Made by a program: the position numbers and the translations under genes
Source of the DNA: Escherichia coli
GTDB taxonomy: Bacteria > Pseudomonadota > Gammaproteobacteria > Enterobacterales > Enterobacteriaceae
Length of the DNA stretch: 64,000 nt
Strand: one strand, 5' to 3'
Assembly (NCBI RefSeq): GCF_013315695.1
Contig: NZ_CP054353.1
In this document: positions 8,323-56,195 of the stretch, one piece after another
How the letters are laid out: each line of letters starts with the position of its first letter
Position numbering within the stretch: the stretch's first letter is position 1
Notes under the pieces: generated by a model
Database searches by the model: none
The model's input: the letters and a program-made list of their open reading frames with translations, nothing else
Told to the model about the DNA's origin: nothing

Positions 8323-8325
8323 GTC

Positions 8326-8562
8326 CATAAGAAAGCCCCTCCGGAGAGGGGCTAAAGCCGCGTATCTGTATCATCATGCACATGGTGCCGGGTGCCTCCC
8401 GGTGAGTTCAGCCCGGTGCCACTAAACCCGCGTCATTCTCGTTTTGATAATCAGAGATTATACCGTCACCAGTCGCCCCTCCGCTCAGGGGGATTCACCA
8501 TGCGAAATTTTTTTAACAAATGCCCAGTCTGACAGGCAACTGTCAACTTACTGAATTGTGAG
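8326..8562. repeat. direct repeat copy A (about 237 bp) in the late operon
   Basis: Shares with copy B the blocks AAAGCCCCTCCGGAGAGGGGCT, CATGGTGCCGGGTGCCTCCCGGTGA, GCCCCTCCGC-CAGGGGGATTCACCATGC, TTTTAACAAA and CTGAATTGTGAG. Confidence 0.6.
8335..8352 (-). terminator. hairpin GCCCCTC-CGGA-GAGGGGC with downstream U-rich tract on the minus strand (repeat A)
   Basis: Perfect 7-bp GC stem; in minus orientation followed by TTTCTT. Confidence 0.45.
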
Positions 8563-8812
8563 CAACATAGCATTTAACGGGGAACCTGTTTTCTGCAGTA
8601 AAAAGGCCCACCGGAGCGGATGGGCCTGGAAGGATAGCGGTCATGTGATGCCGGTTTCCCGGTAACTCAGCACCGGTATCTGAGTCAACGTTTTCTCTAC
8701 TGGGTCATTTCCGATACGCCCTGCCTGCTGACAGGCTTTCATCACATCTGAAAATATAGCACCCTGACTGATACTGTAGTACCTAAGGTTCCAGAAACTG
8801 TGATGTATCCGG

Positions 8813-9038
8813 CACAGAAAAGCCCCTCCGGAGAGGGGCTGGAGAGTGGCGCTATGTGCCATTGCATGGTGCCGGGTGCCTCCCGGTGAATTCAGTACCA
8901 GCACCTGAATCCGCGATTATCCCATATACCTACTCGCTGATTGCCCCTCCGCACAGGGGGATTCACCATGCCAGTTTCTTTTAACAAACTCCCCGCAAAC
9001 CAGACAACAGTCAACCGCCTGAATTGTGAGACATTTAA
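8813..9038. repeat. direct repeat copy B
   Basis: Imperfect copy of repeat A about 480 bp away. Confidence 0.6.
8822..8839 (-). terminator. hairpin GCCCCTC-CGGA-GAGGGGC with downstream U-rich tract on the minus strand (repeat B)
   Basis: Same hairpin as copy A; in minus orientation followed by TTTTCT. Confidence 0.45.
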
Positions 9039-9074
9039 AAAAAGCCCGCAAAAGCGAGCCAGGGAAAATAAGTG

Positions 9075-9151
9075 TGGCGCGTTGTACTGGATTCGAACCA
9101 GTGACCGATTGCTTAGAAGGCAATTGCTCTGTCCGGCTGAGCTAACAACGC
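9075..9151 (-). tRNA. tRNA-Arg (anticodon UCU)
   Basis: Manual fold of the reverse complement: acceptor GCGTTGT/ACAACGC, D-arm GCTC/GAGC, anticodon stem ATTGC/GCAAT with loop CTTCTAA, T-arm ACTGG-TTCGAAT-CCAGT, discriminator G, CCA encoded. Confidence 0.8.
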
Positions 9152-9164
9152 AGGATACAGATAA

Positions 9165-9241
9165 TGGACCGCCTTCGGGGACCCGAACTCCGCGCAACCA
9201 GCTTCGAAAGCTGGCGCTCTTTCCTGATGAGCTAATGGCGG
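9165..9241 (-). tRNA. tRNA-like gene, Arg-type (anticodon UCG by manual fold), possibly degenerate
   Basis: D-arm TAGCTCATCAGGAAAGAGC, anticodon stem CCAGC/GCTGG with loop TTTCGAA, CCA encoded; one mismatch in the acceptor stem and one in the T stem; T-loop TTCGGGT is non-consensus. Confidence 0.5.
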
Positions 9242-9248
9242 TATGTGA

Positions 9249-9324
9249 TGGTGGCCCTTGCTGGATTTGAACCAGCGACCTGGCGATTATGAGTCGCTCG
9301 CTCTCACCACTGAGCTAAAGGGCC
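9249..9324 (-). tRNA. tRNA with CAU anticodon, ileX-like (tRNA-Ile2/lysidine type; could be Met)
   Basis: Acceptor GGCCCTT/AAGGGCC perfect, anticodon loop CTCATAA, T-arm GCTGG-TTCAAAT-CCAGC, discriminator A, CCA encoded; closely resembles E. coli ileX from memory. Confidence 0.8.
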
Positions 9325-13534: not shown

Positions 13535-13690
13535 TTACTCCTCAGGTTCGTAAGCTGTGAAGACAGCGACCTCCGTCTGGCCGGTTCGGAGTCGTACCTC
13601 GCAGAGGTCTTTCCTCGTTACCAGTGCCGTCACTATGACGGTTAAACAGATGACGATCAGGGCGATTAACATCGCCTTTTGCTGCTTCAT
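13535..13690 (-). CDS. hok: Hok/Gef-family type I toxin (HokD-like)
   Basis: 51-aa product MKQQKAMLIALIVICLTVIVTALVTRKDLCEVRLRTGQTEVAVFTAYEPEE; the ORF-track ORF carries a 19-codon in-frame upstream extension. Confidence 0.85.
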   Translation of the reverse strand: MKQQKAMLIALIVICLTVIVTALVTRKDLCEVRLRTGQTEVAVFTAYEPEE

Positions 13691-13927
13691 AGCCTGCTTC
13701 CCCTTGCCTTTCGGCACGTAAGAGGCTAACCTACATTTGTGAGACATAGATTGGGCCTCAGATTAATGTTAAGCGTCTTGCAGGACGCGAAATGTTAACT
13801 GGGGCTTTTCTCTATCTGCCTTTCAGTGTTCATGCCTGAGACAGATAGCCTCAAGCACCCGCAGCCATTCTACTTAACTCACGTCACCTCGCCAATATGA
13901 AATCAATCAGAAAGGTGATCCATAAAA

Positions 13928-17738: not shown

Positions 17739-18164
17739 TTAGTGCATCACCACAGCATTCCCTGCCGGGCCGCCGCGATTCATCTGGTCATACAAAACAA
17801 CCGCTGACGCAACAAAATCATCGACATCCTTCACCAGCCGATCCCTCCGTTCGACGATCTCACGGTAATATTCAGAACTGTGGCTGCGCATACGGGCCAC
17901 CAGCAAAGGCGGCATCGCCTTTTCGATCGCCGGTAACAGAGCCTGCATTTTTTCAACAGCATCAGGGGGGGCTTTCTCTACCCAGCGGAAAATTTTCTGG
18001 GTATTGCGAGCCAGGGCTTCCGGATGGCTGTCGTCATACAGTTCCGGGAACGTCATACCCAACTCAAAATAAGCCTGGGTTATTCCAGCTGCTGGAACTT
18101 TTTCGCCATCAGGACGCGCCCAGGCATTCATCGCCATGCGGATGTGTTCATGCTTGATTTTCAT
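17739..18164 (-). CDS. YdaT-like CII-type regulator
   Basis: 141-aa product MKIKHEHIRMAMNAWARPDGEKVPAAG...; position after the cro-like gene; assignment from my recall of Rac YdaT. Confidence 0.6.
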   Translation of the reverse strand: MKIKHEHIRMAMNAWARPDGEKVPAAGITQAYFELGMTFPELYDDSHPEALARNTQKIFRWVEKAPPDAVEKMQALLPAIEKAMPPLLVARMRSHSSEYYREIVERRDRLVKDVDDFVASAVVLYDQMNRGGPAGNAVVMH

Positions 18165-18429
18165 GAATCAAGCTCCTAGAAAGTGGTTGTGTTAACGTTT
18201 TGGTATCTTCCAGCTCGGGCCAAATATTCATCCAATCAAAAGGCCTTAGTTGCTGACGTGTAACTTCACCATTACTGGCTCGCTCAATAAGGACACATAA
18301 CGATGCCCCTAACACTTGACCTTTACTCAATGCCTTTCTTAGATAACCGATGCTGGTACCACACTCGCATGCAAACATACGCTGTTCATCTGACGAAAGA
18401 GAATTGAGAAATATTCTTAATTCTTCCAT
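18148..18429 (-). CDS. Cro-like HTH regulator (YdaS-like)
   Basis: 93-aa ORF divergent from the repressor gene; first gene of the minus-strand early operon. Confidence 0.55.
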   Translation of the reverse strand: MEELRIFLNSLSSDEQRMFACECGTSIGYLRKALSKGQVLGASLCVLIERASNGEVTRQQLRPFDWMNIWPELEDTKTLTQPLSRSLIHENQA

Positions 18430-18458: not shown

Positions 18459-18536
18459 TACCCACAGGTAAACAAAAGCCAATACCCACAGGTTGTTTAC
18501 CTTGCGGTAATCGCATCTATTATTTACCTATGGACA
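18459..18536. promoter_or_regulatory. OR-like operator cluster between cro-like and repressor genes
   Basis: Three TACC-N4-GGTA-type sites: TACCCACAGGTA (18459-18470), TACCCACAGGTT (18483-18494), TACCTATGGACA (18525-18536, overlapping the repressor ATG). Confidence 0.55.
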
Positions 18537-18949
18537 AATATGAATTTAGACGACAGCAACTCATCAAAATTCGTGATGAGAAATGCGATGGTAAAGCGGT
18601 TAACGTGGCCAGAAAGATCGGGCGCGAGCCTTCTTATGTATCAAGAATGTTGTACCCAGAGGGGAAAAAGGGAAAAAAACGGATCGCTGATGATATGGTG
18701 GAGATTATCGAAGAGTCCTTTGGGTTACCCCGGGGATGGATGGATGGTATCGTTTCATCATCAACGAACACAGCCTCCAGTTATGAAACAAGGGTTCTAA
18801 CGCCACGACAACGTATTTTTTTAGATCTCTTAGACGAACTGCCAGAAAGTGAAGCGGATAAATTATTAAAAACTCTTGAAGAGAAAAAACAGTATTACAA
18901 TATGATCTACGAAGAAATCCGTAAAAAGAAAGCACAAAACGCATCATAG
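18530..18949 (+). CDS. prophage repressor (CI-like, HTH)
   Basis: 139-aa ORF divergent from the cro-like gene; N-terminal HTH-like segment AVNVARKIGREPSYVSRMLY. Confidence 0.55.
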   Translation: MDKYEFRRQQLIKIRDEKCDGKAVNVARKIGREPSYVSRMLYPEGKKGKKRIADDMVEIIEESFGLPRGWMDGIVSSSTNTASSYETRVLTPRQRIFLDLLDELPESEADKLLKTLEEKKQYYNMIYEEIRKKKAQNAS

Positions 18950-18990: not shown

Positions 18991-19027
18991 TACCCATGGG
19001 TATTTACTTTTTAAATACCTATGGGTA
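18991..19027. promoter_or_regulatory. OL-like operator pair downstream of the repressor gene
   Basis: Perfect palindrome TACCCATGGGTA (18991-19002) and TACCTATGGGTA (19016-19027), same TACC-N4-GGTA architecture as the OR sites. Confidence 0.55.
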
Positions 19028-19213
19028 TCCTTCTTTTCATACCAACCCACCCCGCCCCACAGAATGCAGGGCAATACTTCGAGTTACCAGGCAGTGGTCA
19101 GGGGTTAAGTAGCCAGCCCGAGGCGTAAGAACATGACGGCAGGGTTCAACTTTAATAACTATGCAGCAGGTTTTTGTTCCGCTACCCCGGCGTTAAGGGG
19201 AAATGAGGTCAGC

Positions 19214-19366
19214 ATGGATACTATCGATCTTGGCAACAGCGAATCTCTGGTATGTGGCGTGTTCCCCAACCAGGACGGTACGTTCACCGCGATGACGTAT
19301 ACCAGAAGCAAAACGTTTAAAACTGAAGCTGGCGCGCGTCGCTGGTTAACCAGAAACACTGACTGA
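19214..19366 (+). CDS. small early-left protein (50 aa)
   Basis: ATG with GAGG 5 nt upstream; C-terminal Arg-rich stretch; ORF-track ORF starts earlier at 19133. Confidence 0.4.
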   Translation: MDTIDLGNSESLVCGVFPNQDGTFTAMTYTRSKTFKTEAGARRWLTRNTD

Positions 19367-19377
19367 TGAGGTTGACG

Positions 19378-19779
19378 ATGGAATTTAAAGATTTACCAGT
19401 ACCATTCCAGGAAATGGCATCGAATGTGGTTCGCTCTCAACTGGCGACTCTTGACCTGAGTACCGTAGAAAAGGAAACCATCGATACTATATCCGGTAAC
19501 GTGCGTCGTGCCTTTATAGGTCTGTATGAAGAGAAGCGCCTATTCGGCGGACAGAATTCGCCTGAAAACAAGAATCAAGCAAATGATGAGAAGCTGAAAC
19601 ACATTATCGCCTTACTTTTGGAAGACGCAAAACGTCTACAGCAACTGGAACCAAATGCAGGCACAGAGGCCCGCATTTGGATTGCCATGAAATCACTCAA
19701 ATGTGAAAGCAGTGATTATTTCAAAACAACAATTAAAACTACTCAACTTTCGGGAGAGCTACTGAAGAAATTGCCATAA
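19378..19779 (+). CDS. hypothetical early-left protein (133 aa)
   Basis: ATG with GAGG upstream, 12 nt after the previous stop; no recognised domain. Confidence 0.45.
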   Translation: MEFKDLPVPFQEMASNVVRSQLATLDLSTVEKETIDTISGNVRRAFIGLYEEKRLFGGQNSPENKNQANDEKLKHIIALLLEDAKRLQQLEPNAGTEARIWIAMKSLKCESSDYFKTTIKTTQLSGELLKKLP

Positions 19780-20017
19780 GAGCATGGTCTTTCTCTTGTT
19801 CTGCAAGATGAGCATTAATACCTGGTATGGTTTTTTCAAATTTATCTATCTGTTGAATAACAACTTCGCGGTATACGTTTGTTTTTGTACCACCAAGCGC
19901 AGCCGTTAATGCAGAAAGCATATTTAGTATCATATCAGTGCGATATGAAAGAATCCTGATAGCTTCATCTTGTTCTTCAATAATAGATTGCAGGGCCTCA
20001 ATTTGCTTTTTATCCAT
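19739..20017 (-). CDS. hypothetical coiled-coil-like protein (92 aa), antisense to the early-left operon
   Basis: ATG preceded by perfect AGGAGG at 5-nt spacing; overlaps the 3' end of the convergent 133-aa gene by 41 bp; ORF-track ORF extends to 20056. Confidence 0.5.
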   Translation of the reverse strand: MDKKQIEALQSIIEEQDEAIRILSYRTDMILNMLSALTAALGGTKTNVYREVVIQQIDKFEKTIPGINAHLAEQEKDHALMAISSVALPKVE

Positions 20018-20588
20018 TTCACCCTCCTGAGGGTTGGTAATTAAGGAGTTCTCCACGGGTCAGGTGGAGTGCGTGCGCCGGACACGGGTGAGCATCCGGC
20101 ACTGACAGCTTACTGAAAGGATATGTCCCTGAAAAGTCAGGGCATAACGCGAAAGCGCACGGCGAAATTGGTCTCTCTGTACGGTGTCGTTAAATTTAGT
20201 TCGACCGTGCGCTTCCGGTTGTGGCACTCCGCGAAATGGCGCGGCGGTAAGTATGGCTGGGGTTTCCTCCATTGCTCCAGAAAATGCACCGGGTTGTCAG
20301 GTTGACCATACGCTTAAGTGACAACCCCGCTACAACGCCCTCTGTTATCAATTTTCTGGTGACATTTGGCGGTATCAGTTTTACTCCGTGACTGCTCTGC
20401 CGCCCTTTTTAAAGTGAATTTTGTGATGCGGTGAATGCGGCTATGCGCACGCGGAACAGTTAAAGCAGTAAGGCGGTATTTTACGGGCGTAACGAGCATC
20501 AACTAACCCGGCGTTAATTGTTAACTGGTTAACGTCACCTGGAGGCACCAGGCACTGCATCACAAAATTCATTGTTGAGGACGCGATA

Positions 20589-20777
20589 ATGGAAACGTTA
20601 TTACCAAACGTTAATACGTCTGAAGGTTGTTTTGATATTGGTGTTCTGCTCAGTAACCGGGAGTTTACTGAAGATGCCATTAATATGAGGAAATATGAGC
20701 CTTATCTGCTCAATGATAATTCCATACTTTCCCGAATTGCTCTTCTTGAACTTGGTATTTTCGGAGAACGTCAATGA
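20589..20777 (+). CDS. hypothetical small protein (62 aa)
   Basis: AT-rich ORF with GAGGA upstream; stop overlaps next start (ATGA). Confidence 0.4.
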   Translation: METLLPNVNTSEGCFDIGVLLSNREFTEDAINMRKYEPYLLNDNSILSRIALLELGIFGERQ

Positions 20778-20962
20778 CTTCAGCATTTGCACTGATGATG
20801 ACGGTTTTTCTTATAACGGGTGAATCACAGAATGTGATTACCGGAATTTATGCAAGTAAAGAATCCTGCCTCCAGGCAAGAGACGAGCAAAAAATTTCTG
20901 GTGAATGCCTCCCGCTAAAAAAAGTATCGCTGTACCTGAATAACGAAACACCGGCTGGATAA
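20774..20962 (+). CDS. hypothetical small protein (62 aa) with N-terminal hydrophobic segment
   Basis: Translationally coupled to the preceding ORF; N-terminus MTSAFALMMTVFLITG is signal/TM-like. Confidence 0.4.
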   Translation: MTSAFALMMTVFLITGESQNVITGIYASKESCLQARDEQKISGECLPLKKVSLYLNNETPAG

Positions 20963-21057: not shown

Positions 21058-23529
21058 ATGAGTAAGGTCTTTATTTGCGCTGCTATTCCTGATGAACAGG
21101 CCATAAAAGAAGATAGCGCTGTTGCGGTGGCCACTGCCATTGAAGCTGGTGATGAGCGTCGCGCACGCGCAAAATTTCATTGGCAATTTCTGGAGCAATT
21201 CCCTGCAGCTCAGGACTGCGCTTATAAATTTATTGTCTGTGAGGATAAACCCGGCATACCCCGCCCTGCCCTCGATTCCTGGGATGCTGAATATATGCAG
21301 GAAAACCGCTGGGATGAGGAGTCTGCTTCCTTTGTCCCGGTTGAGACTGAATCCGATCCGATGAACGTCACTTTTGACAAGCTGGCCCCTGAAGTACAGA
21401 ACGCTGTCATGGTTAAGTTCGACACATGTGAAAACATCACCGTTGATATGGTTATTAGCGCACAGGAATTGTTGCAGGAAGACATGGCAACATTCGACGG
21501 ACATATCGTTGAAGCGTTGATGAAAATGCCAGAAGTTAACGCCATGTATCCGGAGCTTAAGCTGCATGCCATCGGGTGGGTTAAGCATAAATGTAAGCCT
21601 GGTGCCAAATGGCCCGAAATTCAGGCAGAGATGCGCATCTGGAAAAAACGTCGCGAAGGTGAACGTAAGGAAACCGGAAAATACACGTCTGTTATTGATC
21701 TCGCCCGCGCCAGAACCAATCAACAGCACAGTGAAAATTCAACAGGAAAAATCAGCCCGGTCATTGCTGCCATTCATCGCGAATACAAGCAGACATGGAA
21801 AACACTGGATGACGAACTGGCCTACGCTCTCTGGCCTGGTGATGTGGATGCCGGAAACATTGACGGCAGCATCCATCGCTGGGCAAAAAATGAAGTTATC
21901 GACAACGACCGCGAAGACTGGAAGCGTATCTCGGCATCAATGCGCAAACAGCCTGATGCCCTTCGCTACGACCGCCAAACTATTTTTGGCCTTGTCCGTG
22001 AGCGTCCGATCGACATTCACAAAGATCCCGTAGCACTGAACAAATATATCTGCGAATACCTGACGACAAAGGGCGTGTTTGAGAATGAAGAAACAGACCT
22101 GGGCACTGTTGATGTTCTCCAGTCATCAGAAACACAAACTGATGCAGTGGAAACTGAGGTATCTGATATCCCAAAAAATGAAACCGCGCCGGAAGCTGAA
22201 CCATCTGTAGAGCGTGAGGGGCCGTTCTATTTCCTCTTCGCAGATAAGGACGGAGAAAAATGCGGTCGCGCAAACAAACTTTCTGGTCTGGATAAGGCAC
22301 TGGCTGCTGGCGCCACTGAAATCACAAAAGAAGAATATTTTGCCCGAAAAAATGGCACATACACGGGCTTACCGCAAAATGTAGATACCGCTGAAGATTC
22401 AGAACAACCAGAGCCGATAAAAGTTACCGCTGACGAAGTAAACAAAATTATGCAGGCAGCCAATATCAGCCAGCCTGACGCCGATAAGTTGCTTGCTGCA
22501 TCACGTGGTGAATTTGTTGAAGGGATTAGTGACCCGAATGATCCGAAATGGGTTAAGGGGATCCAGACCCGCGATTCTGTGAACCAGAACCAGCATGAAT
22601 CGGAACGGAACTACCAAAAAGCGGAACAAAACAGCCCAAATGCGTTACAAAACGAGCCAGAAACGAAACAGCCTGAACCAGTGGCGCAACAGGAAGTGGA
22701 AAAAGTCTGCACCGCCTGCGGTCAGACCGGCGGCGGCAACTGCCCTGATTGTGGCGCGGTGATGGGCGACGCAACATACCAGGAAACATTCGATGAAGAG
22801 TATCAGGTTGAAGTTCAGGAAGATGATCCGGAGGAAATGGAAGGCGCTGAACATCCACACAAGGAGAACACTGGCGGCAATCAGCATCACGATAGCGATA
22901 ATGAAACTGGCGAGACGGCAGATCGCTCAATTAAGGTGAACGGTCATCACGAAATCACATCCACCAGCAGGACGTGTGACCATCTAATGATCGACCTTGA
23001 AACCATGGGAAAAAATCCTGATGCCCCGATCATCTCAATAGGTGCAATATTTTTCGATCCGCAAACCGGAGATATGGGACCGGAATTTAGTAAGACTATC
23101 GATCTGGAAACTGCTGGCGGAGTCATTGATCGGGACACCATTAAATGGTGGCTTAAGCAATCACGCGAAGCGCAATCTGCCATTATGACCGATGAAATCC
23201 CGTTAGATGATGCACTGTTACAATTGCGGGAATTTATCGACGAAAACTCCGGTGAATTTTTTGTTCAGGTTTGGGGAAATGGAGCCAACTTCGACAACAC
23301 GATTTTGCGCCGTTCATACGAACGGCAGGGGATCCCCTGCCCGTGGCGTTACTACAACGATCGCGATGTACGCACAATCGTTGAGCTGGGGAAAGCCATA
23401 GACTTCGATGCCAGAACGGCTATTCCATTCGAAGGTGAGCGCCATAATGCACTTGATGACGCCCGTTACCAGGCAAAATACGTTTCAGTTATCTGGCAAA
23501 AACTGATCCCGAGTCAGGCTGATTTTTAA
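21058..23529 (+). CDS. prophage exonuclease (823 aa) with C-terminal DnaQ-like DEDDh 3'-5' exonuclease domain
   Basis: C-terminal motifs MIDLETMG (Exo I), GNGANFDNTIL (Exo II), HNALDDARY (Exo III); central zinc-ribbon-like CTACGQTGGGNCPDCG; long acidic region; early-left operon position of recE. Confidence 0.6.
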   Translation: MSKVFICAAIPDEQAIKEDSAVAVATAIEAGDERRARAKFHWQFLEQFPAAQDCAYKFIVCEDKPGIPRPALDSWDAEYMQENRWDEESASFVPVETESDPMNVTFDKLAPEVQNAVMVKFDTCENITVDMVISAQELLQEDMATFDGHIVEALMKMPEVNAMYPELKLHAIGWVKHKCKPGAKWPEIQAEMRIWKKRREGERKETGKYTSVIDLARARTNQQHSENSTGKISPVIAAIHREYKQTWKTLDDELAYALWPGDVDAGNIDGSIHRWAKNEVIDNDREDWKRISASMRKQPDALRYDRQTIFGLVRERPIDIHKDPVALNKYICEYLTTKGVFENEETDLGTVDVLQSSETQTDAVETEVSDIPKNETAPEAEPSVEREGPFYFLFADKDGEKCGRANKLSGLDKALAAGATEITKEEYFARKNGTYTGLPQNVDTAEDSEQPEPIKVTADEVNKIMQAANISQPDADKLLAASRGEFVEGISDPNDPKWVKGIQTRDSVNQNQHESERNYQKAEQNSPNALQNEPETKQPEPVAQQEVEKVCTACGQTGGGNCPDCGAVMGDATYQETFDEEYQVEVQEDDPEEMEGAEHPHKENTGGNQHHDSDNETGETADRSIKVNGHHEITSTSRTCDHLMIDLETMGKNPDAPIISIGAIFFDPQTGDMGPEFSKTIDLETAGGVIDRDTIKWWLKQSREAQSAIMTDEIPLDDALLQLREFIDENSGEFFVQVWGNGANFDNTILRRSYERQGIPCPWRYYNDRDVRTIVELGKAIDFDARTAIPFEGERHNALDDARYQAKYVSVIWQKLIPSQADF

Positions 23530-32550: not shown

Positions 32551-33473
<923 letters not shown>

Positions 33474-55992: not shown

Positions 55993-56076
<84 letters not shown>

Positions 56077-56110
56077 TCTCAAGCATTACCTCAAAATTTG
56101 AATTACCCTT

Positions 56111-56195
<85 letters not shown>

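Follow-up and report, generated by a model that had tools for sequence, protein, structure and literature searches.

A candidate antisense expression slot in the dicBF-type early-left operon of an Escherichia coli prophage

A dicBF-type operon beside ompW

Between the repressor and the exonuclease of an Escherichia coli prophage lie five small open reading frames (ORFs), one of them antisense to the others, and the question raised by this locus is what they encode and how the antisense ORF is expressed. An earlier note, made from the DNA letters, had considered all five as unknown genes and as candidates for undescribed exclusion, anti-defence or toxin functions. We examined them within a window of 64,000 nucleotides of contig NZ_CP054353.1 (assembly GCF_013315695.1). 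The ORFs of 50, 133, 62 and 62 aa on the plus strand and of 92 aa on the minus strand exist as that note described, and the same five are called by PGAP, which predicts no other coding sequence at this locus in a 100% identical RefSeq genome. The order annotated there is DUF1391, hypothetical, hypothetical, dicB, DUF1482, exonuclease, xis, int and ompW. Judged by sequence, the region is a dicBF-type early-left operon in a PPompW-like lambdoid prophage integrated beside ompW. The operon and its control elements comprise the following features.

18530-18949, plus strand: 139-aa CI/DicA-like repressor of the prophage, oriented like the early-left operon (PHROG 5736 transcriptional regulator, E=6e-70)
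18991-19031, plus strand: left operator pair, palindromes TACCCATGGGTA at 18991-19002 and TACCTATGGGTA at 19016-19027, flanking the candidate early-left promoter
19003-19008 and 19026-19031, plus strand: candidate early-left promoter, TTTACT, 17-nt spacer, TATCCT (read by eye; 8/12 positions match)
19214-19366, plus strand: ydfA-like gene, 50 aa, first dicBF gene (PGAP 'DUF1391 family protein'; PHROG 751)
20354-20405, plus strand: DicF sRNA gene with intrinsic terminator (Rfam RF00039, 77 bits vs a gathering score of 48, E=5e-16)
20589-20777, plus strand: dicB, 62 aa (NCBIfam NF049927, 114.2 bits vs a cutoff of 100; dicB in PGAP)
20774-20962, plus strand: ydfD-like gene, 62 aa (PGAP 'DUF1482 family protein'; PHROG 1092)
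21058-23529, plus strand: exonuclease, 823 aa, the next early-left gene, after which xis and int adjoin ompW (PGAP annotation of the identical locus; ORF list)

As assigned by these matches, the operon reads ydfA-like, 133-aa gene, DicF sRNA, dicB and ydfD-like. The description of five unknown genes therefore does not hold for the three ORFs that fall into the named families YdfA/DUF1391, DicB and YdfD/DUF1482; for these, confident homology, which the earlier note had itself named as grounds against its proposal, removes the idea of an undescribed function. The idea survives, undemonstrated, for the 133-aa and 92-aa genes. Identity to the K-12 products is 87.8% for YdfA, 62.9% for DicB and 43.5% over 62 aa for the YdfD lysis protein, and dicF carries a single substitution (51/52 nt identical). 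The dicB gene lies directly 3' of dicF and is followed by the ydfD-like gene. These last two ORFs are AT-rich, as claimed (37.6% and 41.8% GC), and their ATGA overlap indicates translational coupling. The hydrophobic N-terminus of the last product was also confirmed (AFALMMTVFLITG; hydropathy maximum at residues 4-22).

Functions have been published for parts of the dicBF operon (PMC5069750, PMC6832061, PMC10448788, PMC9438474). Among the mRNAs that the DicF sRNA represses is ftsZ (PMC5069750), DicB inhibits cell division and also excludes lambda (PMC6832061), and YdfD is a lysis protein according to work cited in PMC10448788. The DicB homolog scores above the cutoff of its curated family and would confer a MinC-dependent division block by homology; the YdfD-like protein agrees with YdfD in its length of about 63 aa, hydrophobic segment and family and would act in lysis by homology. 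The Kil-equivalent role in the operon is filled by DicB and DicF, and no functional match to Kil/KilR was found for the 133-aa and 92-aa proteins in Pfam, NCBIfam or PHROG.

The placement of these genes in an early-left position where host-takeover, exclusion or toxin genes are expected was borne out by the operators at 18991 and 19016 and by the CI/DicA-like repressor. The C-terminal part of the repressor shows a weak likeness to DicA (NF007257, below cutoff), and its counterpart in phage Tritos is annotated 'CI repressor'. The operator pattern TACCYAYRGGTA gave 10 matches against 0.73 expected, with one cluster at 18991/19016, in the gap from the repressor gene to ydfA, and another at 18459/18483 within the divergent promoter region. 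An early-left promoter is inferred between the operators, its hexamers being below the threshold of the standard promoter scan. By homology, the repressor bound to TACCyAyrGGTA operators would hold the operon off in the lysogen, and derepression would yield a single transcript of ydfA, the 133-aa gene, dicF, dicB, ydfD, exo, xis and int. As in K-12 Qin, DicF would be freed by termination and RNase E/III processing and would then repress ftsZ and other mRNAs, DicB would block division through MinC and exclude lambda-type phages, and YdfD would cause lysis.

The order, orientation and upstream repressor match those of K-12 Qin (dicA/dicC, ydfA-ydfB-ydfC-dicF-dicB-ydfD), with which the locus is collinear apart from 19346-20031. 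No similarity to ydfB or ydfC was found between ydfA and dicF; in their place stands this 686-bp cassette with the 133-aa and antisense 92-aa genes, which are the only uncharacterized members of the operon. Variation among strains at the ydfB-ydfC spot has been described (PMC5069750). Unlike Qin, which is decayed, the prophage here looks intact (exo, xis and int beside ompW), and its repressor is a different CI-type protein with weak similarity to DicA.

The antisense 92-aa gene and its convergent neighbor

The cassette holds two overlapping ORFs, and the Shine-Dalgarno (SD) sequence and convergent overlap reported in the earlier note are both present.

19378-19779, plus strand: 133-aa early-left gene encoding two helical modules
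19739-20017, minus strand: 92-aa antisense ORF, SD AGGAGG at 20028-20023 five nt before the ATG, 41-bp convergent overlap with the 133-aa gene

On the basis of its substitution pattern, the 92-aa ORF is a real gene; its product is an orphan, acidic protein with three predicted helices. Comparison with Salmonella homologs gave 19, 9 and 29 substitutions at codon positions 1, 2 and 3 and dN/dS of 0.08-0.25, and homologs at 33-45% identity retain the length and a C-terminal SVALPKxE motif. That the ORF is a chance product over-predicted by PGAP is hardly credible. Such a reading could point to the lack of a known domain, to the location of a small ORF in a 37% GC segment (36.6% for the ORF vs about 50-54% in the flanks) in which long antisense ORFs readily appear, and to a plus-strand ORF that likewise stays open; it is already contradicted by the third-position excess confined to the minus frame, and the homologs down to 33% identity, the consensus SD at optimal spacing and the conserved leader also argue against it. 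The plus-strand ORF in question (41 aa, 19784-19909) is open across species and was rejected as a real gene (omega 0.60, wrong codon periodicity). A GTG at 20056 was considered as an alternative start (105 aa) and set aside in favor of the ATG at 20017, as it lies inside the 3' arm of a leader hairpin (hairpin 2) and is not conserved with an SD.

The family is small: sets of 1.84 billion and 5.8 billion proteins contain 13 representatives and 45 clusters of it, respectively, every label being hypothetical, and a scan of GTDB representative genomes found no more relatives. An AF2 model (pLDDT 72) predicts three helices, the N-terminal one being long (residues 3-41); the coiled-coil-like character ascribed to the product by the earlier note is compatible with this helix, here as part of a three-helix protein. 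Foldseek searches of PDB, BFVD and AFDB50 were empty, the only AFDB50 match being the protein itself. The protein is acidic and soluble, and its maximum hydropathy of 0.93 indicates no transmembrane segment.

The 133-aa protein is modular. Its N-module (aa 1-62) is widespread in dicBF operons, its C-module (aa ~70-120) corresponds to a stand-alone 71-aa gene of Salmonella Rac-like prophages (dN/dS of 0.19-0.55 when aligned to that protein), and PHROG matches are likewise split into N and C parts, with families of unknown function only. The first 160 bp of the gene are present in 1457 genomes; of 5426 complete E. coli genomes, 123 have the entire cassette. AF2 (pLDDT 66) predicts helices at 8-23, 32-56, 65-90 and 94-108 and a disordered tail (aa 111-133), which extends into the antisense gene. 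The 133-aa protein has no match in Pfam, NCBIfam or PDB sequences, and searches of Pfam, NCBIfam, PADLOC, PDB sequences and fold libraries suggested no function for either protein. No SieB match was obtained for either in Pfam scans, and neither has a hydrophobic stretch of transmembrane grade. A check for defence proteins, proposed in the earlier note, gave no match among the window proteins, with only noise in PADLOC-DB v2 (E>=0.02).

The earlier note had also suggested a functional pair at 19378-20017, and we considered that the two genes might form a dedicated module, such as a toxin-antitoxin or effector-immunity system coupled via the 41-bp overlap. They move as one block in E. coli, including an insertion after ydfC (locus L005); in Salmonella Rac-like prophages a 93-aa homolog overlaps the homolog of the 133-aa C-module by exactly 41 bp; and the overlap is the most conserved segment (6-7 substitutions in 41 nt). 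The suggestion is nevertheless weakened, because the two genes are found apart in other prophages. At L004 the 133-aa gene stands opposite another antisense ORF, of 57 aa, whereas homologs of the 92-aa gene occur with no partner and a replaced C-terminus at L010, without any overlapping gene at L016 and L017, and with an unrelated 214-aa HTH partner and the same 41-bp overlap at L013. The length of the overlap is explained by where the stop codons fall in the conserved 3' end coding for SVALPKxE. Additionally, the overlapped tail of the 133-aa protein is predicted to be disordered, and neither protein matches a toxin-antitoxin or defence family. A type II system is disfavored by the lack of a toxin or antitoxin domain and by the separate occurrence of the genes, and a type I toxin by the length (92 aa), acidity and solubility of the product and by a leader that shows no sign of SD occlusion. 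We consider a dedicated pair very improbable. We propose that the 92-aa product most likely acts by binding and inhibiting another protein. Our best guess at its purpose, and the weakest step of the argument, is phage exclusion or counter-defence.

A conserved two-hairpin leader and the ORFs behind it

A stretch of 570 bp (20018-20588) separates the antisense ORF from dicB. Although passed over in the earlier note, it holds the DicF sRNA gene together with a structured leader of the antisense gene.

20107-20135, minus strand: candidate sigma-70 promoter of the antisense unit, TTTTCA, 17-nt spacer, TAAGCT (-10 hexamer at 20107-20112)
20018-20102, minus strand: antisense 5' leader with hairpin 1 (20102-20075), hairpin 2 (20069-20051) and the SD
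20140-20353, plus strand: conserved spacer of the dicBF precursor, untranslated, separating the antisense promoter from dicF

The candidate promoter is the top minus-strand PWM match upstream of the ORF, with a score of 7.7 that is not significant alone (about 246 equal or better matches per 64-kb strand), and the standard promoter scan returned no minus-strand promoter reaching its threshold. Its -10 hexamer, TAAGCT here, is TAAACT in most copies. A -10-like hexamer also lies 5-8 nt before hairpin 1 in unrelated upstream contexts (TGtTATTAT at L013, TAAAAT at L012 and TGcTATAGA at L178). The predicted antisense start at ~20100-20102 falls at the foot of hairpin 1, and its K-12 counterpart is NC_000913.3 ~1,649,128-1,649,132, minus strand.

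Both hairpins form in 37/37 distinct leader variants, and RNAalifold returns a consensus structure for the leader. Hairpin 1 has an 11-bp stem with invariant U.G wobbles and is predicted to be more stable on the minus strand (-14.7 vs -11.6 kcal/mol), whereas hairpin 2, which occurs with at least five different stem sequences, shows no strand preference and is at least as stable on the plus strand. The leader has no Rfam match. Occlusion of the SD by a conserved anti-SD was considered and rejected: RNAalifold drew a CUCCU/AGGAG helix with a U-A to A-U swap, but the pairing probability of the SD was 0.66, lower than the 0.80 of shuffled leaders. Beyond the end of the 92-aa ORF, no terminator was detected on the minus strand.

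The ORF behind this leader varies. The hairpin-1 motif was found in at least 120 viral contigs of IMG/VR, counts that do not represent independent events because the loci are mostly closely related E. coli prophages. At least 14 unrelated ORFs have their SD and ATG 54-65 nt 3' of hairpin 1, a fixed spacing. When different cargos are compared, identity is 95-100% over the final 60 nt of the leader and 26-35%, the random level, over the first 150 nt of the ORFs. As judged from these alignments, unrelated small ORFs are exchanged exactly at the ATG behind a conserved leader. The other cargos show dN/dS of 0.10-0.43, and the combination of purifying selection, strong SDs and exchange exactly at the ATG implies that the protein products matter. 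The PPompW phages and phage Evi, which are the closest relatives, carry a 77-aa ORF behind the same leader. The leader also accompanies the 92-aa ORF family at loci without dicF, in Salmonella Rac-like prophages and a P2/186-like element (L007, L012 and L013). Searches of PHROGs, NCBIfam, PADLOC and PDB gave only sub-threshold YmfI-like and ECs1072-like similarities for other cargos, ten of which had no PADLOC match.

These observations are best explained by a dicBF operon with an independent antisense unit, in which the conserved promoter and leader serve as an expression slot for swappable accessory genes, a reading to which we assign a probability of roughly 0.6. The unit would consist of a sigma-70-type promoter and a transcript that opens with a stable 5' stem-loop and continues through another hairpin and a strong SD into a small ORF. 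Promoter and leader would belong to the dicBF backbone and the ORF would be interchangeable, with the 92-aa ORF here, the 77-aa ORF in PPompW, at least a dozen unrelated ones elsewhere and none in K-12, such that the leader would act as a slot for 'moron'-type accessory genes. The 5' hairpins would stabilize the mRNA, the orientation would let the cargo be made while the lytic operon is repressed, and convergent transcription on induction would shut it off.

In about half of the sampled loci, K-12 among them, no ORF follows the leader, which may therefore serve some separate function, either in the plus-strand dicF precursor or as an antisense regulator. According to the first possibility, the hairpin block would be part of the plus-strand dicBF transcript, acting in processing or stabilization of the DicF precursor or as a put-like antiterminator past the dicF terminator into dicB-ydfD-exo-xis-int, and the antisense ORFs would exploit a conserved recombination boundary. 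In nearly every dicBF operon, also where an antisense ORF is lacking, dicF indeed follows the hairpins at a constant distance of ~250 nt, and the variable zone runs from ydfA to the hairpin. The region 20032-20450, which spans the leader region and the spacer, is 88-90% identical to K-12 Qin and phage Tritos, and the spacer upstream of dicF corresponds to the long untranslated region described in PMC5069750. DicF biogenesis needs RNase III/E processing of a polycistronic RNA, with RNase III affecting the stability of its upstream part (PMC10448788), and the internal intrinsic terminator requires the downstream genes to have some route to expression. The stability of hairpin 2 on the plus strand, at least equal to that on the minus strand, also agrees with this possibility. 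However, the leader travels with the 92-aa family to the dicF-less loci, and hairpin 1 keeps its fixed spacing to the SD and ATG of the unrelated ORFs. The invariant U.G pairs of hairpin 1 become A.C mismatches on the plus strand, where the stem is about 3 kcal/mol weaker. Unlike put sites, the element has no second copy downstream of the rightward promoter, and no put-like copy was found elsewhere within the window; the lack of an Rfam match also counts against a plus-strand role. We regard this role as unlikely.

According to the second possibility, the antisense unit would be mainly regulatory, with constitutive convergent transcription, or the antisense RNA itself, limiting leakage from the toxic dicF-dicB-ydfD genes in the lysogen and the ORFs being secondary passengers. 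Lambda oop RNA, P22 sar RNA and convergent-promoter interference in phage 186 offer parallels for such damping. Promoter and leader are present, without an annotated feature, in 3108 of 5426 complete E. coli genomes (57%) and are far more widespread and conserved than any cargo (2%). The unit persists without an ORF in K-12-type loci, where it would read antisense into ydfC; it is placed between the early-left promoter and the toxic genes; and the 41-bp convergent overlap would yield a double-stranded RNase III substrate. Purifying selection on the cargo ORFs, their strong SDs and their exchange at precisely the ATG nevertheless argue that the protein products matter, and we hold a mainly regulatory unit to be somewhat unlikely. 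Such regulation is compatible with the preferred reading and does not exclude an expression slot.

Relation to known systems and implications

The antisense leader is the new observation here, the operon functions of DicF, DicB and YdfD being already described; a literature search found nothing on these protein accessions or on any antisense unit in dicBF. As in K-12 Qin, the untranslated block from the variable zone to dicF is conserved, hairpin leader included. The PPompW prophages of EHEC O26 (e.g. LC567822) and phage Evi share the ompW-adjacent integration, the exonuclease, dicB, ydfD and the leader (94.6% identity over all 112 nt). They differ in that their 77-aa ORF is unrelated to the 92-aa one and the convergent 135-aa gene has another C-terminus, and phage Evi has a Kil gene where dicB stands.

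Several known arrangements resemble the antisense unit in part. The sieB genes of Rac and lambda/P22 are separately expressed genes within the early-left operon near the immunity region, and sieB of Rac is encoded on the other strand from kilR and recE. SieB, at about 160-190 aa, is a membrane protein, whereas the 92-aa protein has neither a transmembrane segment nor a Pfam SieB match. Morons of lambdoid phages, as described by Juhala, Hendrix and colleagues, are independent promoter-gene-terminator units between backbone genes. The unit resembles them in presence or absence among relatives (the cassette in 123 and the leader in 3108 of 5426 genomes), in lower GC (36.6%), in its own SD and putative promoter and in an orientation independent of the host operon. 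It departs from them in that promoter and structured leader are conserved backbone, the ORF alone is exchanged at the start codon, and no terminator was found. Like accessory hotspots, such as the P2/P4 defence hotspots and anti-CRISPR loci with a conserved promoter and aca, the locus combines a fixed position and conserved regulation with variable, unrelated small genes; unlike them, it has no cargo matching a known defence or anti-defence protein, sits antisense inside a lytic operon and has two 5' hairpins as its mark in place of a conserved regulator gene. Finally, lambda oop RNA and P22 sar RNA are likewise short convergent units that overlap an early gene at its 3' end and are read from a promoter of constitutive type, here a candidate one. 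They are non-coding, whereas the antisense ORF here is under purifying selection, and K-12-type loci may make a non-coding version.

Extended beyond this prophage, the proposal becomes more tentative, and we place it at somewhat less than even odds. Most enterobacterial dicBF-type operons would contain a previously unannotated antisense promoter and two-hairpin plug-in slot, at which small ORFs of 30-99 aa from at least 14 families, nearly all lacking an assigned function, are swapped at the start codon, such that each prophage could express a different small effector from within a repressed toxic operon. The locus would then be a new hotspot, possibly for exclusion or counter-defence, and K-12 Qin, where the slot is empty, would produce a non-coding RNA antisense to ydfC.

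Most E. coli genomes contain dicBF-type loci, frequently several of them. If the proposal is true, the slot offers a defined and easily cloned collection of prophage 'dark-matter' genes, and the common regulation of the cargos suggests a common kind of task. It would also explain the variable C-termini of the proteins encoded upstream, as their genes read into the antisense of whichever cargo is present. DicF and DicB, with their effects on cell division, metabolism, phage resistance and EHEC virulence, would in addition have a convergent transcription unit as part of their regulation.

Identity of the operon

All of the open reading frames that the earlier note had placed in 19133-20962 were found there, with products of 50, 133, 62 and 62 aa on the plus strand and a 92-aa ORF on the minus strand (19739-20017), which carries AGGAGG 5 nt before its ATG and overlaps the 133-aa gene by 41 bp. 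Both 62-aa ORFs are coupled by an ATGA overlap and are AT-rich (37.6% and 41.8% GC), and the second has the hydrophobic N-terminus ascribed to it. The same five coding sequences, and no others, are called by the NCBI pipeline in a 100% identical chromosome. However, their description as five unknown genes does not hold, as three of the five are members of named families, one of them well characterized. The 570-bp stretch 20018-20588, which had been taken as empty, contains the DicF small-RNA gene. The surroundings are as follows.

20354-20405, DicF small-RNA gene (Rfam RF00039, 77 bits against a gathering score of 48)
Upstream of the operon, CI-type repressor of 139 aa
Downstream, in series, 823-aa exonuclease, xis, int and then chromosomal ompW

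Homology identifies DicF, DicB and YdfD, and with them a dicBF-type early-left operon. The region is collinear with prophage Qin of K-12, which runs dicC, dicA, ydfA, ydfB, ydfC, dicF, dicB, ydfD. Similarity to Qin covers 19176-19345 and resumes from 20032 to beyond 21100, whereas the ydfB-ydfC segment of Qin is replaced in the window by an unrelated 686 bp (19346-20031). The window dicF differs from that of K-12 at one position. Of the encoded proteins, the 50-aa one has 88% identity with YdfA and the first 62-aa one 63% with DicB (114 bits, above the curated NCBIfam threshold of 100), and the second, annotated as DUF1482, has 44% with the lysis protein YdfD. The dicBF operon is published as DicA-repressed, YdfD is cited as a lysis protein in PMC10448788, and ydfA, ydfB and ydfC have no function assigned (PMC5069750). 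The downstream series of exonuclease, xis, int and ompW indicates a prophage of the PPompW type, described for EHEC O26. The view of this region as a set of undescribed accessory genes is borne out in part. A known operon had in large part been rediscovered, and the orphan 133-aa and 92-aa genes remain as its two real unknowns.

A 12-bp palindrome, TACCyAyrGGTA, lies in four copies on both sides of the repressor gene (18459, 18483, 18991 and 19016), and the pattern gives 10 matches on both strands against 0.73 expected. This immunity type probably has its right and left operators in these four palindromes (18459-18494 and 18991-19027). The pair at 18991 and 19016 brackets a weak candidate promoter for the operon, which was read by eye. 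The left pair also folds as a hairpin with a 16-bp stem followed by a T-rich run, and was flagged by the terminator scan. In the rightward early region (17739-18429, minus strand), genes for a Cro-like regulator and a YdaT-family protein ("toxin YdaT family" in PGAP) are followed by genes for a replication-organiser-like protein and an IstB/DnaC-like ATPase.

Further elements were found elsewhere in the window. Inside the prophage, a match to the Rfam sok antitoxin RNA (13685-13860, minus strand, 120 bits) points to a type I toxin-antitoxin locus of the hok/sok kind. Three tRNA genes are adjoined by two tandem STnc100 sRNA matches (8323-9324, minus strand, 165 and 136 bits), as is typical of Stx-like lambdoid phages in their late-regulatory region. 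Beyond the ompW-side prophage end, an isrC sRNA match (145 bits) and two additional tRNA genes (32619-32741 and 55993-56192, both plus strand) may mark other mobile elements.

The antisense gene and its plus-strand neighbor

In order to assess coding, the 92-aa ORF was compared with homologs of 71-74% identity from Salmonella and a metagenome. Substitutions at codon positions 1/2/3, counted in the part outside the overlap with the 133-aa gene, were 19/9/29 and 18/9/27, and Nei-Gojobori dN/dS for three pairs was 0.25, 0.17 and 0.08. This comparative pattern shows the antisense ORF to be coding and contradicts an origin of the frame by chance. The family is small, with 13 matches in 1.84 billion representative proteins and, by profile search, 45 clusters in 5.8 billion, from E. 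coli, Salmonella and Klebsiella; all 45 are labeled "hypothetical" and none has a Pfam domain. Distant relatives (33-45% identity) are likewise about 90 aa long and retain the central motif and SVALPKxE at the C-terminus, and a 91-aa protein is a remote relative (hhalign probability 96%). The AlphaFold model (pLDDT 72) consists of three helices, the N-terminal one long, and Foldseek searches of PDB, BFVD and AFDB50 returned only the protein itself. Separately, an open plus-strand ORF of 41 aa showed an omega of 0.60 and the wrong periodicity and was set aside as a by-product.

The 133-aa protein (19378-19779), which had no match in Pfam, NCBIfam, PADLOC or PDB, is modular. Its PHROG matches divide at residue ~65, and in Salmonella Rac-like (RecET) prophages a homolog of residues ~70-133 exists as a separate protein of 71 aa. 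The AlphaFold model (pLDDT 66) places two helical hairpins around a disordered linker, with a disordered tail at residues 111-133. Among 5426 complete E. coli genomes, 1457 have the first ~160 bp of the gene and 123 the whole cassette.

The earlier note had treated the 133-aa and 92-aa genes as a possible pair. They do travel together in E. coli (prophage locus L005), and in Salmonella a 93-aa homolog overlaps the 71-aa homolog by, again, exactly 41 bp. However, each is also found apart. In locus L004, a different antisense ORF of 57 aa accompanies the 133-aa gene; in the Salmonella prophage L010, the 92-aa homolog has no partner and a replaced C-terminus; in the P2/186-like element L013, a family member overlaps an unrelated 214-aa HTH protein, also by 41 bp; and in two lambda-like contigs, a member adjoins a cI gene with no overlapping gene. 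The constant overlap follows from conservation of the antisense gene at its 3' end, since any plus-strand gene that enters this end stops at the same codon. With the partners separable and the 41 bp accounted for, a dedicated pair is unlikely.

A leader with interchangeable cargo

Approximately 90 nt upstream of the 92-aa ORF are conserved even in distant homologs and fold as two hairpins followed by the Shine-Dalgarno (SD) sequence. The parts of this leader and its candidate promoter are as follows.

20135-20107, minus strand, candidate antisense promoter (TTTTCA, 17-nt spacer, TAAGCT), with the start predicted at the foot of hairpin 1
20102-20075, minus strand, hairpin 1, 11-bp stem GUGCCGGAUGC/GUGUCCGGCGC
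20069-20051, minus strand, hairpin 2

A search of viral contigs with the hairpin-1 motif identified at least 120 loci. In leader orientation, at least 14 unrelated ORFs (30-99 aa) follow the motif, with their SD and ATG at a fixed distance of 54-65 nt from it, and about half of the loci among the matches listed, including K-12 Qin, have the leader without an ORF. The leader has two main alleles, each with several unrelated ORFs behind it. When loci with different cargos (the small ORFs behind the leader) are aligned, identity is 95-100% over the last 60 leader nt and 26-35%, the random level, over the first 150 nt of the ORFs, which places the exchange point at the start codon. The leader is thus shown to be conserved and its cargo interchangeable. 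Coding evolution is also seen in the other cargos (dN/dS 0.10-0.43, on small counts), and a known function was found for none of the cargos. In the closest relatives of the window prophage, the PPompW phages and phage Evi, the leader is 94.6% identical over 112 nt but is followed by a 77-aa ORF instead of the 92-aa ORF. Of 5426 complete E. coli genomes, 3108 contain the promoter-leader block, in up to five copies each, and the block carries no annotated feature.

The variable zone of the operon lies between ydfA and the hairpin, which stands constantly ~250 nt upstream of dicF. The N-module family of the 133-aa gene (P0093-P0148) ranges over 106-166 aa with many differing C-termini, because in several loci the upstream gene reads into the antisense of the adjacent cargo ORF, with overlaps of 11-41 nt (11-32 nt in loci with other antisense ORFs). 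The tails of these proteins therefore look like by-products of cargo exchange.

Two further arrangements were observed. In a Salmonella prophage (L010, 3361-3720, and L106), the leader is directly preceded by a coiled-coil-like ORF of 119 aa that has the orientation of the 92-aa homolog, so the antisense unit can carry two tandem genes. In L005 (3960-5060), dicF is followed by a dicB fragment, isrK-like and C4 antisense RNA matches, a Rha antirepressor gene and then a full dicB, which is a second insertion hotspot within the operon.

Expression and possible role of the proposed antisense slot

An alternative is that the hairpins act in the plus-strand precursor of DicF, for its processing or for antitermination. 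Use on the minus strand is supported by the fixed hairpin-SD/ATG spacing, by linkage of the leader to the 92-aa family in loci without dicF, by invariant U.G pairs in hairpin 1, and by the mean stability of hairpin 1 over 13 variants (-14.7 kcal/mol on the minus strand versus -11.6 on the plus strand). For hairpin 2, neither strand is favored; its pairing is maintained, as at least five different stem sequences occur. The candidate promoter is the best minus-strand match upstream of the 92-aa ORF, in a window where such scores are common, so that the score proves nothing alone; positional support comes from a -10-like hexamer 5-8 nt before hairpin 1 in unrelated upstream contexts. The antisense unit is predicted to be transcribed. 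The terminator scan found no terminator after the 92-aa ORF. A palindrome with a 6-bp stem (20120-20140, plus strand CCCTGAAAAGTCAGGG), conserved in dicBF-type loci, overlaps the -35 hexamer of the candidate promoter and may either bind a protein or fold as a small hairpin in one or the other transcript.

5'-terminal stem-loops shield E. coli mRNAs from 5'-end-dependent decay, and the leader hairpins may protect the antisense mRNA in this way. A conserved anti-SD hiding the SD was rejected, as the idea failed its control, with an SD pairing probability of 0.66 versus 0.80 in shuffles.

We propose that promoter and leader would form an autonomous antisense expression slot. Its cargo would be expressed while the prophage is repressed, and induction would shut it off through convergent transcription. 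The 92-aa product would be soluble and bind a host or phage protein, and its most plausible theme is exclusion or counter-defence, considering its patchy spread (2% of genomes), low GC and a site near the immunity region, comparable to that of sieB in Rac. The unit could also be mainly an antisense brake on a toxic operon, with the ORFs as passengers; the empty slots favor this reading, which is compatible with the expression slot proposed here.

In the literature searched, no description was found of an antisense slot with start-codon-precise cargo exchange, and the conserved slot appears to be undescribed so far. It is best classed as a variant under the moron or accessory-hotspot theme. In K-12 Qin (L003, 3063-3190; NC_000913.3 ~1,649,060-1,649,190, minus strand), the same candidate antisense promoter and two-hairpin leader lie between ydfC and dicF, with no SD or ORF behind them and no feature annotated there. 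If this candidate promoter is active, K-12 would produce a non-coding RNA antisense to ydfC, with a predicted start at ~1,649,128-1,649,132 on the minus strand.
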